The position numbers were made by a program, and so were the translations under genes. 54,262 bases of DNA from an uncultured Clostridia bacterium (GTDB lineage Bacteria > Bacillota > Clostridia > TANB77 > CAG-508). A model generated the notes under the pieces. The model made no database searches. It saw only the letters and a program-made list of their open reading frames with translations, and was not told where the DNA came from. Where the stretch lies: the NCBI GenBank assembly GCA_944388675.1, contig CALXJR010000001.1, forward strand, positions 1-54,262, written 5' to 3'. Numbering within the stretch: position 1 is the first letter of the stretch; every line of letters starts with the position of its first letter. Shown piece by piece: positions 12,726 through 24,711 of the stretch.

Positions 12726-13811
12726 ATGGCTAATCCAATGCAAAAAAAATCAAGAAGATCTTTTATTTTAGGTATTTTAGTAGCAGTTGTCTTAATGGGA
12801 GTTGTTGTTGCTATATTATTAATGCAGATAAGCAAATTAAAAGAAGAACAAGATCAATTAATTGCAAATAGAGTTAAAGTATATGCATTAAATAAAGACA
12901 TAAAATCAGGACAAATAATTACTCAAGACATGCTTACCGAAATAGAAACCGATAAAGGTGGTGTACCAAATAATGCAATTAATAATCTAAATGATTATTA
13001 TCTAGTTGACCAAGATGGTAATGATATTATTACTGTGTCACAAAAAGATGAGAATGGCAATGAAAGACTAGTTACATGTGTAGTTATAGAAGGTAGAAAT
13101 TATGCAATTGAGAATATAAATGAAAATACAGGAACAATAACATTTAATGGACAAACTAGAACAATTATAATGAATTCAGCTCCTGTATTAGCAAAAATTG
13201 ATATGAATCAAAAAACAATTTTAACTAGTGATTCAGTTGTAAAAAGTACAGAAACTATAACTGATTCAACAAGATTACAAGAATATAATATGATTATGCT
13301 TTCTACAGGTCTAACTTCAGGTGACTTTATAGATATAAGATTAAGAATGCCATCTGGAGCAGACTATTTAGTAGTATCTAAAAAACAAGTTGAAGTTCCT
13401 ATTATAGATGGTGCTGAATCAGTAAACACAATATGGGTAAATTTAACAGAAGATGAAATATTAACAATGAGCAATGCAATTGTTGAAGCATATATGATGG
13501 AAGGTGCAGTTCTTTATACAAGCAAATATGTAGAGCCAGGAATGCAAGAACAAGCAACGCCAACATACATACCAAGTGATGCTGTTAGAAGTTTAATTGA
13601 AAGAGATCCAAACATTGTACAAGAAGCTAAAAATGCAATATTAACAAGATTTAATGAAAATCAAACTGATGTTAGAGGAAGCATAAATGGAGAGCTTTCA
13701 CAAATAGAACCAGAAGATAGAACAACAAATTTAAATACTGGAGTAACAACAGAAGTAACAAATGCACAACAACAAAGACAATCATATTTAGATGCGCTTG
13801 CAGGAAACTAA
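12726..13811 (+). CDS. CpaB/RcpC-like pilus assembly protein (TM anchor + SAF-like domain)
   Basis: N-terminal TM (SFILGILVAVVLMGVVVAILLM). SAF-like segment NRVKVYALNKDIKSGQIITQDML and GDFIDIRLRMPSGADYLVVSKKQVEVP resemble CpaB. GGAGG RBS. Confidence 0.6.
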   Translation: MANPMQKKSRRSFILGILVAVVLMGVVVAILLMQISKLKEEQDQLIANRVKVYALNKDIKSGQIITQDMLTEIETDKGGVPNNAINNLNDYYLVDQDGNDIITVSQKDENGNERLVTCVVIEGRNYAIENINENTGTITFNGQTRTIIMNSAPVLAKIDMNQKTILTSDSVVKSTETITDSTRLQEYNMIMLSTGLTSGDFIDIRLRMPSGADYLVVSKKQVEVPIIDGAESVNTIWVNLTEDEILTMSNAIVEAYMMEGAVLYTSKYVEPGMQEQATPTYIPSDAVRSLIERDPNIVQEAKNAILTRFNENQTDVRGSINGELSQIEPEDRTTNLNTGVTTEVTNAQQQRQSYLDALAGN

Positions 13812-13841
13812 AATAAAACATAATAAATCAGGGAGGAAACA

Positions 13842-14540
13842 ATGAAAAAGATAGGCTTTATAGGTGTATTCGACAAAACAGATTTAATAATGTACATTTC
13901 AAGAGTATTAGTCGCAATGGGAAAAAAAGTACTAGTTATTGATTCGACCGTGAATCAAAAAGCAAAGTATATTGTCCCTAAAATTAATCCTACAGCTTCT
14001 TATGTAACTGAATTTGAAGGAGTAGATGTATCAGTTGGTTTTAGAGACTATGACTCTATAAAAGACTATCTTGGTATGCCTAGATCAGCAGTATTAGTAT
14101 ATGACTATATTTTTATAGATTTGGATGACCCAACATTATTAGAAAGCTTTGAGATTAATGCTGCAGACAAAAATTATTTTGTAACCTCTCCTGATTTGTT
14201 TTCGCTAAAAAAAGGCTTGGAAATACTTAGTGGTGTAAGGCAACCAATGGAATTAACAAAAATATTATTTTCAAATAAAATGTCTCAATCTGAAGATGAG
14301 TATTTAAATTTCTTATCTTTAGGATATAAAATAATATGGAGCCCAGAAAAAATATATTTTCCAATGCTAACAAATGATTTAGATATAATAATGGAAAATC
14401 AAAGATTATCAAAAATAAAATTTAAGGGATTAAGCTCAGAATATAAAGAATCACTTATATACTTAATTAACCAAATAAATGAAGAAAATAATACATCTAA
14501 CGTTAAAAAGATAATTAAATTATTAGAAAAAGGAGTATAG
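13842..14540 (+). CDS. MinD/ParA/CpaE-fold protein with degenerate P-loop
   Basis: KKIGFIGVFDKTDLIMYISRVLVAMGKKVLVIDST aligns with the MinD beta1-P-loop-helix, but GKS/T is replaced (GVFDKTD). Walker-B-like YDYIFIDLDD. Confidence 0.55.
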   Translation: MKKIGFIGVFDKTDLIMYISRVLVAMGKKVLVIDSTVNQKAKYIVPKINPTASYVTEFEGVDVSVGFRDYDSIKDYLGMPRSAVLVYDYIFIDLDDPTLLESFEINAADKNYFVTSPDLFSLKKGLEILSGVRQPMELTKILFSNKMSQSEDEYLNFLSLGYKIIWSPEKIYFPMLTNDLDIIMENQRLSKIKFKGLSSEYKESLIYLINQINEENNTSNVKKIIKLLEKGV

Positions 14541-14541
14541 T

Positions 14542-22917: not shown

Positions 22918-22930
22918 GATGCATATATAA

Positions 22931-22978
22931 AACAGTTTAAGGGGGCTGTAAAATTGTCGCTTTAAACTGTTATTTTTT
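22931..22978 (+). terminator. Terminator-like hairpin inside the pilus locus
   Basis: 10-bp stem aacagtttaa/ttaaactgtt with a 21-nt G-rich loop, followed by tattttttat. Confidence 0.45.
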
Positions 22979-23010
22979 ATAGATAATCTAAAATTCAGAA
23001 AGGAAAACAA

Positions 23011-24711
23011 ATGAAGTTACAACATTTAACAATAATTTTTTTAATTATAATAGTTCCAATATCATTAGTATTATCAGCATATATCAATAGTCAAGTCGAA
23101 ACAATAGGTAACCAAACTTCATATAATTCAAATTTGATAAATGCAACATATGATGGTATAAAAGCTTTTCAATTAAATACAATCAATAACTCTTATTCTA
23201 CAATAGGTAACTCAAAAATAAGAGATATTGAAGCTTCTATAAGTACTTTTTTTGCGTCACTTTCAACTAACTTTAGATCAAAAGGCTATAGTGAAGATGA
23301 TATGAGACAACATGTTCCAGCTATATTATTTACTTTATATGATGGATATTATATTTATTCAAATTACTATAATACAGAAACTAGTTCTTATAATTATGGA
23401 TTAAAACCATTTATGTATTATTCTTGCAGATATGTATCAGGATCAAATTATGACTTTGTTGTTAATTATACACTGGATAATACAATAACTGTAATTGGAA
23501 TTGTGAATGGTACTTATGTTACTAAAACAGGTCATTTAATATATGATGAAGGCTATTCTACAGATACAGAAGTTTTAACAGAAGATTTAATTACATTAGA
23601 TAATCCTGGAGTTGATACATCTTATACAAAAGATAATTATCAATATGTGATTTATAATAATCAAAAAATATATAAGGAAAATGGCATAGATGATTCTACT
23701 CCAGACCAAAATAGATACTTTTATTATAGTAGTACATATAGCAAAGACTATGTAAATGATTTGGACACACTTGCATATTTAAATAGTCATTTATCTGGAG
23801 GGAACTTAGTTAGTGATAGTGCACAGAAATATTATGAAGAATCTAAAGAGTTTACTAACTGGGTAACAAGTAATTTGGGAAATATAACACAAGATGATGC
23901 GGTTGATTTAGAAGGAAACCAAATCACAGATTTTGTTACAGATACAGGAACAGATAGAATATTTTTAGTAAGTGATACAAATAATCCATTGCAATCAAAT
24001 TCAGTCTTTAATGAAAATAGGTTATGTGTAATTAGAAAATCAATAGAAACAAATTTAGTTTCAGCAATTACTAACTTCACAAACCATTCAATAATTGGCT
24101 ATGAATTCGCATTACCACAATTAAATGAAGAGGATTGGGAAAAAATAGAAAACAACATTTCAATGGTTACATTTTTACAAGGCTTACCAATAGGTGGAAA
24201 GATATATAATAATTATTGTGTTGTATCAAATGATTCTAATGAAGAAACTGTTGGAAATGATTCAATATTTATAATTGATAGTTCTGGTACATATCATAAA
24301 CCTGGTTGTAAAACATTAATTGAACAACTAGATAATGGAACAGTAACTATTGCAGGAGCATATGCAAGTAGTGACTTTAACAGAAGGACAGTGTCATTAA
24401 CTGGTTCTGATGCTAATGCTGGAGCACAGCTTACAGGAACAGATAGTGACACATATGCATTCTTCTATCCACAAGTCTCAACTGCATATAGTCCAACATC
24501 TACAGCATGTTACAACTGTATTGTAACAGTTGCAGACACATATAGTACTGATGAAATAATATCAGGTTCTGTAACAGATTCTTCTAATGGAAGAGCAATA
24601 GATATAACAAATTTAAATGGACAAAACTTACAAAAAGCTTATCTTACTGCACTTGCAAGAGCAAGATATGACCTATATATTACAAATGGATACTTTGGAT
24701 ATGGAGATTAA
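23011..24711 (+). CDS. Large N-terminally anchored extracellular protein (566 aa; candidate tip/adhesin subunit)
   Basis: MKLQHLTIIFLIIIVPISLVLSAYINS, then a Y/N/T/S-rich ectodomain with C-terminal Cys pairs (HKPGCKTL, TACYNCIV). It is the last gene of the locus. Confidence 0.5.
   Translation: MKLQHLTIIFLIIIVPISLVLSAYINSQVETIGNQTSYNSNLINATYDGIKAFQLNTINNSYSTIGNSKIRDIEASISTFFASLSTNFRSKGYSEDDMRQHVPAILFTLYDGYYIYSNYYNTETSSYNYGLKPFMYYSCRYVSGSNYDFVVNYTLDNTITVIGIVNGTYVTKTGHLIYDEGYSTDTEVLTEDLITLDNPGVDTSYTKDNYQYVIYNNQKIYKENGIDDSTPDQNRYFYYSSTYSKDYVNDLDTLAYLNSHLSGGNLVSDSAQKYYEESKEFTNWVTSNLGNITQDDAVDLEGNQITDFVTDTGTDRIFLVSDTNNPLQSNSVFNENRLCVIRKSIETNLVSAITNFTNHSIIGYEFALPQLNEEDWEKIENNISMVTFLQGLPIGGKIYNNYCVVSNDSNEETVGNDSIFIIDSSGTYHKPGCKTLIEQLDNGTVTIAGAYASSDFNRRTVSLTGSDANAGAQLTGTDSDTYAFFYPQVSTAYSPTSTACYNCIVTVADTYSTDEIISGSVTDSSNGRAIDITNLNGQNLQKAYLTALARARYDLYITNGYFGYGD

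Follow-up and report, generated by a model that had tools for sequence, protein, structure and literature searches.

A twelve-gene operon in an uncultured Clostridia bacterium

We analysed a stretch of 54,262 nucleotides from an uncultured Clostridia bacterium of the TANB77 clade (contig CALXJR010000001.1 of assembly GCA_944388675.1; the whole stretch is called the window below), in which an initial reading of the letters, here the original prediction, had singled out a divergent locus resembling those of Tad (type IVc) pili, members of the type IV filament (T4F) superfamily. All twelve open reading frames of this locus (g1-g12) are present on the + strand at positions 12726-24711, separated by intergenic gaps of 1-93 nucleotides, and a Shine-Dalgarno (SD) sequence stands at the usual spacing ahead of every start codon. 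On the upstream side, a perfect 13-bp AT-rich inverted repeat (AAAACTGTTAAAT/ATTTAACAGTTTT) followed by a T-run lies at 12552-12585 on the same strand. This hairpin was read directly from the sequence and was not called by our terminator scan, which requires or favours G+C; it likely terminates transcription of the upstream DUF2651 gene and forms the 5' limit of the operon. On the downstream side, the scan called a strong intrinsic terminator at 24717-24750 (+ strand; 14-bp stem with 7 GC pairs, T-run) that closes the operon, and that is bidirectional and shared with a convergent dacA-type gene. The picture of twelve closely spaced co-directional genes between two terminators was thereby borne out by the reading frames, SD sites and hairpins. 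No riboswitch or other RNA leader was detected by Rfam 5' of g1, even at E<=1.

Hydropathy profiles assign one N-terminal hydrophobic helix each to g1, g4 and g6-g12, and eight helices to g5, and so confirm the single N-terminal helix that had been ascribed to each of the seven downstream proteins. The operon can be divided into three putative accessory genes (g1-g3), a motor consisting of an ATPase (g4) and a platform protein (g5), and the seven small or single-helix membrane proteins (g6-g12).

The motor proteins are related to those of Tad systems

The clearest affinities are found in the motor. The 637-aa protein g4 (15408-17321) is a secretion ATPase with a transmembrane (TM) anchor at residues 6-24 and a family-specific N-domain of ~240 aa, both of which are conserved in its family. 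Its best match among PDB sequences, using the single sequence (phmmer), is CpaF (E=4.7e-10). Using a family profile of 13 sequences, CpaF was again the nearest (5e-18), followed by FlaI (1e-5), PilT (3e-5) and VirB11 (4.5e-4), with GspE and PilB matched only at E>0.09. The catalytic motifs are conserved, including the Walker A (G-EQGCGKT), Asp box (ETAFEL), Walker B (IIGEVA) and His box (THHAKT) elements, and g4 shares 76-97% identity with its counterparts over 80 genomes. Matches to curated models fall short: Pfam T2SSE scores 23.8 bits, just under its cut-off of 24.9; the best NCBIfam match, 'TadA family conjugal transfer-associated ATPase', is far below cut-off at E=1.7e-8; and the ComGA model matches weakly (E=3e-4), such that CpaF is much closer to g4 than either ComGA or PilB. 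Among plasmid-borne proteins, catalytic domains are at least 40% identical within the g4 family, versus ~24-28% to canonical CpaFs. Judged by these comparisons, g4 is a separate clade beside CpaF/TadA, and the PDB matches, motifs and conserved helix identify it as a hexameric-type, extension-type secretion ATPase that unusually carries its own N-terminal helix as a membrane tether, in agreement with the TM-anchored CpaF/TadA-like ATPase originally proposed.

The 692-aa protein g5 (17358-19436) has eight predicted TM helices and had been described as a T2SSF-like protein in which TadB and TadC appear fused. We aligned its family alignment (A6) by hhalign with TadB and TadC alignments built from six canonical plasmid Tad loci (Rhizobium, Sphingobium, Pseudosulfitobacter, Streptomyces, Virgibacillus and C. 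sporogenes). Residues 71-327 matched TadB with 96.5% probability (P=8.8e-10) and residues 348-683 matched TadC with 93.8% probability (P=1.8e-7); in the positive control, TadB and TadC matched each other at 98.3%. Searching for an internal repeat in g5 by hhalign yielded none, and its two halves are related to each other only through TadB and TadC. Other searches were uninformative: Pfam matched neither g5 nor 38 diverse relatives, the g5 profile found no real match among PDB sequences, and an all-helical AlphaFold2 (AF2) model (pLDDT, the predicted local distance difference test, 84) found no match in the PDB by Foldseek (best E 0.2). Both platform domains reside in one polypeptide in 78/78 TANB77-type loci that hold g5, as well as in all distant relatives (~670-700 aa). 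By these profile alignments g5 is a fused TadB-TadC platform, as had been suggested. TadB and TadC are thought to stem from the fission of a two-domain ancestor (PMC10191384), and g5 would be either the pre-fission form or a re-fusion.

The presence of a CpaF-related ATPase and a TadB-TadC platform in one conserved operon places the system in the T4F superfamily, next to Tad.

Candidate accessory proteins, two with remodelled nucleotide-binding motifs

The first three genes had been read as encoding a CpaB/RcpC-like protein and two MinD/ParA-fold proteins. We found matches compatible with these assignments, those of g1 and g2 being weak and below threshold. The 361-aa protein g1 (12726-13811) consists of an N-terminal TM helix followed by a SAF/CpaB-like region, and is a candidate CpaB/RcpC-type envelope component. 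It is matched by TIGR03177 (CpaB; E=2e-5) over N-terminal residues 17-89 only and by Pfam SAF (E=0.012), both below the curated cut-offs, and its plasmid orthologues carry the annotation 'SAF domain-containing protein'. A g1 profile found no match among PDB sequences, and its hhalign comparison with a CpaB profile of 3 sequences was not significant.

The 232-aa protein g2 (13842-14540) is a small MinD/ParA-like protein with weak matches only (MinD 4v02, E=0.11, at the P-loop region; AAA_31, E=0.056). Its Walker A motif is remodelled to GxxDKTD instead of GKGGxGKT, with G8, D11 and K12 invariant among 47 orthologues. The 279-aa protein g3 (14542-15381) is ParA/TadZ(CpaE)-like and is matched more clearly: its profile finds the ParA-family structure 3ea0 (E=1.5e-4) and AAA_31 (E=4.6e-4), hhalign against a TadZ/CpaE set gives 60% probability (P=9e-5), and the Thermobacillus orthologue is annotated ParA. 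In g3 the Walker A Lys is replaced by Gln (K11..G15-Q16-T17). Both g2 and g3 thus have non-canonical Walker A forms, as had been noted, but the description of their P-loops as destroyed was overstated, since the altered motifs are themselves conserved.

The operon is conserved in gut Clostridia and corresponds to a published cluster

Scanning one genome per species with g4, we found relatives in 515 species, and fetched and compared 80 loci, all from uncultured gut Clostridia (including CAG:780, CAG:245 and Ca. Scatovivens). More than 7000 homologues of g4 exist, the nearest being from 'Clostridium sp. CAG:780' and similar gut metagenome bins. This survey of gene neighbourhoods, one of the checks proposed at the outset, established that the 12-gene order is kept across the 80 species-level genomes, with flanks that change beyond the closest genera; an arrangement that stays constant among differing flanks is not due to chance. 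Median identity to the proteins of the window in TANB77-type loci is 82% for g4, 64% for g5 and 34-51% for the remaining proteins. The TANB77 copies are chromosomal and single-copy, and reside amid housekeeping genes that differ between genera.

The locus has been described before, as the 'TANB77 pilus gene cluster', with genes numbered 927-938 in the reference copy of CAG-245 sp000435175 (Nat Commun 2024;15:10726; PMC11680825). It encodes a CpaB-like protein, two COG1192 proteins, a COG4962 ATPase, an ~693-aa protein with eight TM helices and seven proteins with one TM helix each, and is present in single copy (PMC11680825). The reported lengths, 358/231/280/640/693/165/170/143/146/237/178/621 aa for 927-938 (PMC11680825), are close to those of g1-g12 and in the same order (361/232/279/637/692/207/157/145/143/235/178/566 aa). 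Furthermore, the CAG:245 scaffold, source of the reference copy (Clostridium sp. CAG:245; L012 among our fetched loci), holds all 12 genes, with g4 90% and g5 82% identical to those of the window. Taken together, gene order, lengths and identities make the window locus an orthologue of the published cluster, from a sister species, and we see no difference in kind between the two.

The published cluster was annotated from predicted structures only and treated as a Tad pilus: 927-931 were labelled CpaB, TadZ, CpaE, TadA and TadC/TadB using AlphaFold and Foldseek, including matches to AFDB, while 932-938 were termed 'pilin-like' from context and topology (PMC11680825). The N-terminal ~25% of 938, the orthologue of g12, was reported to have a TadE/PilV-like structure, and recombinant 938 activates dendritic cells via TLR4 (PMC11680825). 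These labels were reached independently and support the Tad-like reading; our alignments differ in the order of the platform halves, given there as TadC then TadB and found here as TadB then TadC. The word 'prepilin' does not occur in that paper, in which neither the leaderless N-termini nor the missing peptidase described below is remarked on (PMC11680825). Hence, of the claim that the locus encodes a distinct and poorly characterised machine, 'poorly characterised' stands, and 'undescribed' would not, since both the locus and its Tad-like reading are already known. Three aspects were not found in the literature searched: the leaderless, apparently peptidase-independent subunits; the recognition that the family is distinct, Bacillota-wide and carried by cultured strains and megaplasmids; and a profile-level demonstration of the fused platform.

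The putative subunits begin without a leader peptide

In type IV pilins the N-terminal helix is invariant and the outer domain variable, and several paralogues occur. A similar pattern is seen in the products of the downstream genes. The proteins g6 (19451-20074; 207 aa; MENAAKAL, then a TM helix), g7 (20122-20595; 157 aa; GTG start, MENASQAL) and g9 (21182-21613; 143 aa; start MENASKALIIAG) are pilin-like paralogues without a leader: by hhalign, g6 matches g7 (99.9%) and g9 (99.8%), its relation to both covering the first ~90 residues, and g7 matches g9 along its full length (99.9% over residues 1-155). The 145-aa protein g8 (20670-21107) carries the globular domain of the g7/g9 type behind a different, Lys-rich N-terminus and TM helix that have no MEN motif, with its matches to g7 (99.5%) and g9 (97.4%) restricted to the globular part. 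Conversely, the 235-aa protein g10 (21635-22342) shares the MEN-type N-terminus and TM helix (residues 1-40) of g6, g7 and g9 and has a different outer domain, matching them at ~97% over residues 1-32/41 only. In this grouping g6-g9 are paralogues that share a globular domain (97-99.9%), and g11 and g12 are separate families.

The 178-aa protein g11 (22381-22917) is a core membrane component with one helix and an outer domain that is conserved and bears the motif FVDxVRxxG(Y/K). It is found in every version of the module, with a median identity of 51% and a globular part more conserved than the N-terminus; orthologues were recognised in Paenibacillus (E=1.6e-12) and, by the motif, in loci L084-L089. 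The 566-aa protein g12 (23011-24711) is a large single-helix membrane protein (MKLQHL, then a TM helix) with a length-variable outer region; its orthologues range over 326-820 aa with a conserved N-terminus, and it is a candidate tip or anchor protein.

The major-subunit candidate is g9, which has a variable alpha/beta domain and the strongest SD of the operon (AAAGGAGG). In an alignment of 84 sequences (A5), residues 1-12 (M1-G12) and G24 are invariant, and conservation is 75% over residues 1-28 versus 28% over the remainder. Its ~7000 homologues include none that is named or has a Pfam domain. The AF2 model of g9 (pLDDT 87) starts with a helix (residues 2-36), which a low-confidence linker connects to a small alpha/beta domain; Foldseek found no significant match to it in the PDB (best E 1.8). 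With best E-values of 1.8 for g9 and 0.2 for g5, the fold searches speak neither for nor against a pilin or platform fold. We also observed that the two glycines Gly12 and Gly24, invariant in the 84 sequences, lie within the N-terminal hydrophobic helix of g9; they are reminiscent of the helix-breaking residues Gly14/Pro22 in classical type IV pilins.

The four MEN-type proteins g6, g7, g9 and g10 begin at Met-Glu-Asn with SD-supported starts, and have neither a leader nor a Gly before the helix. They open with MENA(S/T/A)(K/Q/E)AL followed by ~20 hydrophobic residues, a motif that stands at the start codon in most orthologues (MENA(T/S/A)KAL in those of g6, MENA(A/V/S)(E/D)AL in those of g10). 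In g7, an in-frame TAG immediately precedes the start codon, which has its own SD. Of the pilin hallmarks, these proteins retain no more than the hydrophobic helix and an acidic residue close by, and the locus contains no G/XXXXEY motif and no Flp-type open reading frame of ~50-80 aa. The canonical Firmicute Tad loci that we fetched (L090 and L092) do encode small Flp-like proteins with a leader and a Gly site, and the contrast between leaderless and canonical subunits is therefore real. Two further features of the original prediction, subunit genes placed 3' of the motor and the want of an Flp-type G/XXXXEY site, are likewise seen in the data.

Prepilin peptidase is one of four components, together with pilin, ATPase and platform, found in every T4F according to a recent review (PMC10191384). 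We found no A24 peptidase in the locus or the 54-kb window, in which the sole polytopic peptidase is of the M50 type; the predicted lack of an A24/TadV-type gene thus holds for both. Nor is an A24 peptidase annotated near the module on five plasmids discussed below. An A24 motif and TM screen of ~1.8 Mb around 90 related loci also found none, which is weak negative evidence because the positive control found nothing either. The absence of a peptidase is nevertheless self-consistent, since the subunits have nothing to remove.

These observations bear on the possibility that the locus encodes a conventional Tad pilus, in which an unlinked peptidase would process the subunits and the true pilin would be too divergent to recognise. 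Prepilin peptidases are often unlinked to pilus operons, and a Tad pilus is what the published cluster was taken to be. However, the SD-supported MEN starts and the stop codon 5' of g7 leave nothing to cleave; neither a Gly before the helix nor a G/XXXXEY motif is present, the same start being kept in most orthologues over 80 genomes and in Paenibacillus; and no search of the proteins of the locus, the window or the flanks of related loci gave any signal of Flp, TadE or A24. We regard this explanation as very improbable.

The module extends to cultured Bacillota and large plasmids

Searching exhaustively with g5 returned 1165 clusters at the 50% identity level, with full-length relatives of ~670-700 aa found down to 26% identity and no Pfam domain in any of the ten clusters that were scanned. 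Named carriers include cultured Paenibacillus (P. odorifer, P. helianthi, P. apiarius) and Saccharibacillus. The module is organised in the same way in Paenibacillus, where g4 is 48% and g5 28% identical to the proteins of the window, the small subunits start MENI, and g11- and g12-like genes are recognisable. The same order is found on three metagenomic contigs of 40-49% GC, where the short leaderless N-termini take forms such as MSN(A/V)QRAL. Moreover, g4+g5 pairs are found on 35 large plasmids (100-540 kb), all typed non-mobilizable, that is, with no recognised relaxase; these plasmids reside in Paenibacillus, Lysinibacillus (pBsph), Clostridium botulinum, C. argentinense, C. beijerinckii, Butyrivibrio proteoclasticus, Thermobacillus, Alkalihalophilus pseudofirmus OF4, Cohnella, Sporosarcina and Cytobacillus. 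This distribution contradicts the published conclusion that the cluster is confined to TANB77, which was drawn from gut genomes only (PMC11680825). As a side observation, the label 'GTPase SAR1' that NCBI and UniRef give to the g5 homologues of P. apiarius and P. helianthi looks like a misannotation of an 8-TM platform protein.

Several neighbours recur outside TANB77. All the Bacilli and plasmid copies that we examined encode, beside the module, an SLH-domain protein and a very large DUF5704 protein (1000-1400 aa; L087 15566-19939, L088 19195-24040, L097 20510-25068, L086 1-3759, L082 15721-20235; in L082, a Cu_amine_oxidN1 protein takes the place of the SLH-domain protein), while TANB77 copies are without them. 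A GGDEF cyclase gene often, and an HD-domain gene sometimes, follows the SLH/DUF5704 genes. The SLH, DUF5704 and GGDEF/HD neighbours could be cargo, adhesin or regulators. A GGDEF (cyclic di-GMP) gene adjoins the module on three unrelated plasmids, including the C. botulinum copy, which fits a surface-adhesion organelle.

Other neighbours are restricted to particular hosts. In Paenibacillus (L082, JBBOOY010000001.1 6645671-6667752; L083, CP183948.1; and L081), the module lies directly 3' of genes for a 1328-aa FtsK/SpoIIIE (EssC-like) ATPase and an 83-aa YukD-like protein and is followed by a WXG100 gene, and is thus within or beside a type VII secretion-like locus. On C. botulinum plasmid p12/29 (L096), a cell-wall hydrolase gene (18112-18873) stands among the small subunit genes, and lepB, encoding signal peptidase I (25817-26305), is found ~5 kb 3' of the last module gene and ~8 kb beyond the platform; this lepB is possibly relevant to the processing of g8-type subunits. 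On Butyrivibrio pCY186 (L089, 6195-9266) and in L085 (2058-5249), genes for an NlpC/P60 and cell-wall hydrolase pair (fused in L085) and for an S1-domain protein lie directly 5' of the module. Finding these genes ahead of two unrelated copies of the Clostridia type suggests a step dedicated to remodelling the wall.

Some of these neighbours raise the possibility of a DNA-transfer or uptake organelle, a mating-pair or uptake filament of large Gram-positive plasmids of which the TANB77 copy would be a domesticated form. The 35 plasmid-borne g4+g5 pairs speak for it, as do a VirD4-type coupling protein and a replication-relaxation protein encoded ~5-8 kb upstream on Thermobacillus pTHECO01, the NlpC/P60 and hydrolase genes directly upstream on pCY186 and in L085, a single-stranded DNA-binding protein gene ~6 kb downstream on pCY186, the FtsK/SpoIIIE ATPase that precedes a chromosomal Paenibacillus copy, and the conjugal-transfer label of the top NCBIfam match to g4. 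Yet conjugation-type genes are found near some copies only, and are inconsistent between plasmids; the WXG100 and YukD-like neighbours of the FtsK-like gene in Paenibacillus point to a type VII system instead. The TANB77 copies are chromosomal, single-copy and surrounded by housekeeping genes, with no relaxase, coupling protein, VirB4 or integrase within 10 kb. Parts of a conjugative type IV secretion system (VirB4, coupling protein, relaxase) are found neither in the window nor in TANB77 flanks, and VirB11 matches g4 far more weakly than CpaF. On balance a DNA-transfer role is distinctly unlikely. Lysinibacillus pBsph shares a region with pXO16, but a link to the 'tip' conjugation system of that plasmid was dropped when no g5 homologue was found on any Bacillus plasmid in PLSDB, those of the B. 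cereus group such as pXO16 included.

The recurrent large proteins also allow for a secretion device, in which a short pseudopilus of g6-g10 would work as a piston, much as in a type II secretion system, to drive proteins or other cargo across the thick wall, with no long adhesive pilus. The products of the SLH and DUF5704 genes, which consistently follow the module in its Bacilli and plasmid versions, could be this cargo, and g8 has a pilin-like globular domain behind a signal-peptide-like N-terminus (a signal peptide is predicted for its orthologue, 934; PMC11680825). The TM-anchored ATPase and the fused platform mark the machine as re-engineered. By contrast, no cargo gene is conserved by the TANB77 loci, whose flanks are housekeeping genes that vary between genera, and the subunits pair an invariant N-terminus with hypervariable outer domains, a pattern suggestive of exposure and diversifying selection. 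We consider such a device unlikely.

A proposed model for a leaderless Tad-like filament

Combining the above results, we favour the view that the locus encodes a highly divergent, Bacillota-specific relative of Tad (type IVc) systems that makes a surface filament from leaderless subunits, with g9 as the major subunit and g11 and g12 priming, anchoring or capping it, and give this full model a probability of roughly 60%. In the proposed mechanism, g1 (CpaB/SAF-like) and g2 and g3 (ParA/MinD-like) would scaffold and position the machine, the substrates of which would be the single-helix membrane proteins g6-g10. The ATPase g4 would turn the g5 platform, such that subunits are lifted from the membrane and stacked via their N-terminal helices into a filament at the surface; g9 would probably be the major subunit, and g11 and g12 may prime, anchor or cap the filament. 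The subunits would be 'born mature': since their translation begins at the MENA(S/T)KAL motif, with the hydrophobic helix next, no prepilin peptidase step would be required.

This model resembles and departs from known systems in several ways. With the Tad/Flp systems of Aggregatibacter (tad) and Caulobacter (cpa), the locus shares the CpaF/TadA type of its nearest ATPase, the TadB/TadC domains and organisation in one operon, to which a candidate CpaB/SAF-like first gene and putative ParA-like proteins of the TadZ/CpaE type may be added. It differs from them in its TM-anchored ATPase, in having TadB and TadC fused in place of two separate proteins, and in having no Flp pilin, G/XXXXEY motif, TadV or recognisable TadE/F/G; and whereas Tad Flp peptides are ~50 aa, the subunits of the window are 140-235 aa with a globular domain and are encoded 3' of the motor. 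Archaeal archaella and adhesion pili offer other parallels. FlaI is the second-best solved match of the g4 profile, archaeal FlaJ platforms are single large polytopic proteins, and the pilin-like archaeal components FlaF and FlaG retain their N-terminal helix uncleaved. Archaeal pilins and archaellins, however, have class III signal peptides that are cut by FlaK/PibD, unlike the leaderless subunits of the window. An archaeal origin has been proposed for Tad systems (Denise et al. 2019, as cited in PMC10191384). The Com pseudopilus (ComGA/ComGB/ComGC-GG/ComC) is likewise a minimal Gram-positive filament whose motor genes precede small subunit genes in one operon, but its subunits have leaders and need ComC, and ComGB is a standard two-domain T2SSF protein that is seen by Pfam. 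Of the features of the T4F superfamily, the locus has an extension ATPase of the T2SSE/PilB-GspE-TadA-FlaI family and a T2SSF-type platform, and is missing the class III prepilin signal peptide (a short leader with Gly at -1 and usually Glu5).

A number of observations weigh against the proposed filament. In Pfam and NCBIfam, 0/12 proteins reach a curated cut-off, and neither Pfam TadE nor a Pfam or NCBIfam Flp model matches any of them. The assignments of g1 to CpaB and of g2 to TadZ, coming from sub-threshold matches, are weak. Aligned by hhalign, g6-g12 reach a probability of at most 1.2% against an Flp-like set and at most 6.4% against TadE and TadG (g11 and g12 included), when the TadE-TadG control gave 87%. 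In its predicted model, the TM helix of g9 is joined to the outer domain by a linker, unlike the packed arrangement of classical pilins. Glu2 is not universal in the wider family, in which L084 has MSN and L088 MSTNASKAL, with L085, L086 and L089 diverging further. A peptidase could still be encoded elsewhere in the genome. Finally, the surface filament is deduced from genes and profiles, and, TANB77 being uncultured, the sole experiment is the immune stimulation by recombinant 938. The original description of the seven proteins as pilin-like accordingly stands for their single helices and conservation pattern and falls for sequence-profile and fold links to known pilins; we infer a pilin role for g6-g12 from context and that pattern, not from demonstrated homology.

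A broader version of the model would have the module represent a separate, Bacillota-wide branch of the T4F superfamily, spread over TANB77 and Paenibacillaceae chromosomes and large plasmids, that polymerises leaderless subunits, with the peptidase dispensed with, an unsplit platform kept or regained, and a tethered ATPase. We put this forward tentatively, at somewhat less than even odds.

Genomic setting and other features of the window

The window is AT-rich (~27% GC) and uniform in composition. Upstream of the operon lie the housekeeping neighbours cdaA, truA and the DUF2651 gene; downstream lie a convergent D-Ala-D-Ala carboxypeptidase gene, VanW, miaB and mutS. An origin of the TANB77 locus from a prophage or mobile element was rejected, as the locus does not stand out from its surroundings in GC content or skew and is flanked by housekeeping genes; PHROGs returned nothing relevant for the twelve proteins.

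Three further features of the window were noted. The truA gene (11335-12091) is broken into two overlapping reading frames of 70 aa and 200 aa in different frames, while it is one frame of ~245 aa in 12 related genomes; this split is a frameshift in this assembly, due to either a sequencing error or a recent pseudogene. An OLD/Gabija-type nuclease of 583 aa, which combines AAA_21/AAA_15 ATPase with OLD-like TOPRIM domains, is encoded at 39570-41321 (and 41293-42213), probably by an anti-phage defence gene. Lastly, at 32364-36016, ~8-10 kb 3' of the operon, an 847-aa protein without a Pfam match is followed by a membrane-anchored GGDEF protein. Given the GGDEF neighbours on plasmids, a regulatory link between this gene and the operon is conceivable.

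Implications

TANB77 is the gut clade most consistently linked to the response to checkpoint immunotherapy, and the product of the last gene of its cluster, 938, has been proposed as the active molecule (PMC11680825), such that the identity of the machine and the surface display of its products carry practical weight. The presence of the module in cultured, genetically tractable Paenibacillus and Lysinibacillus makes a question that arose in an uncultured clade directly testable. Interest in the system would become high if peptidase-independent filament assembly were confirmed. If true, a Tad-like machine that handles leaderless subunits would for the first time break the prepilin-peptidase rule for type IV filaments, and would help to show what purpose the leader and its removal serve.

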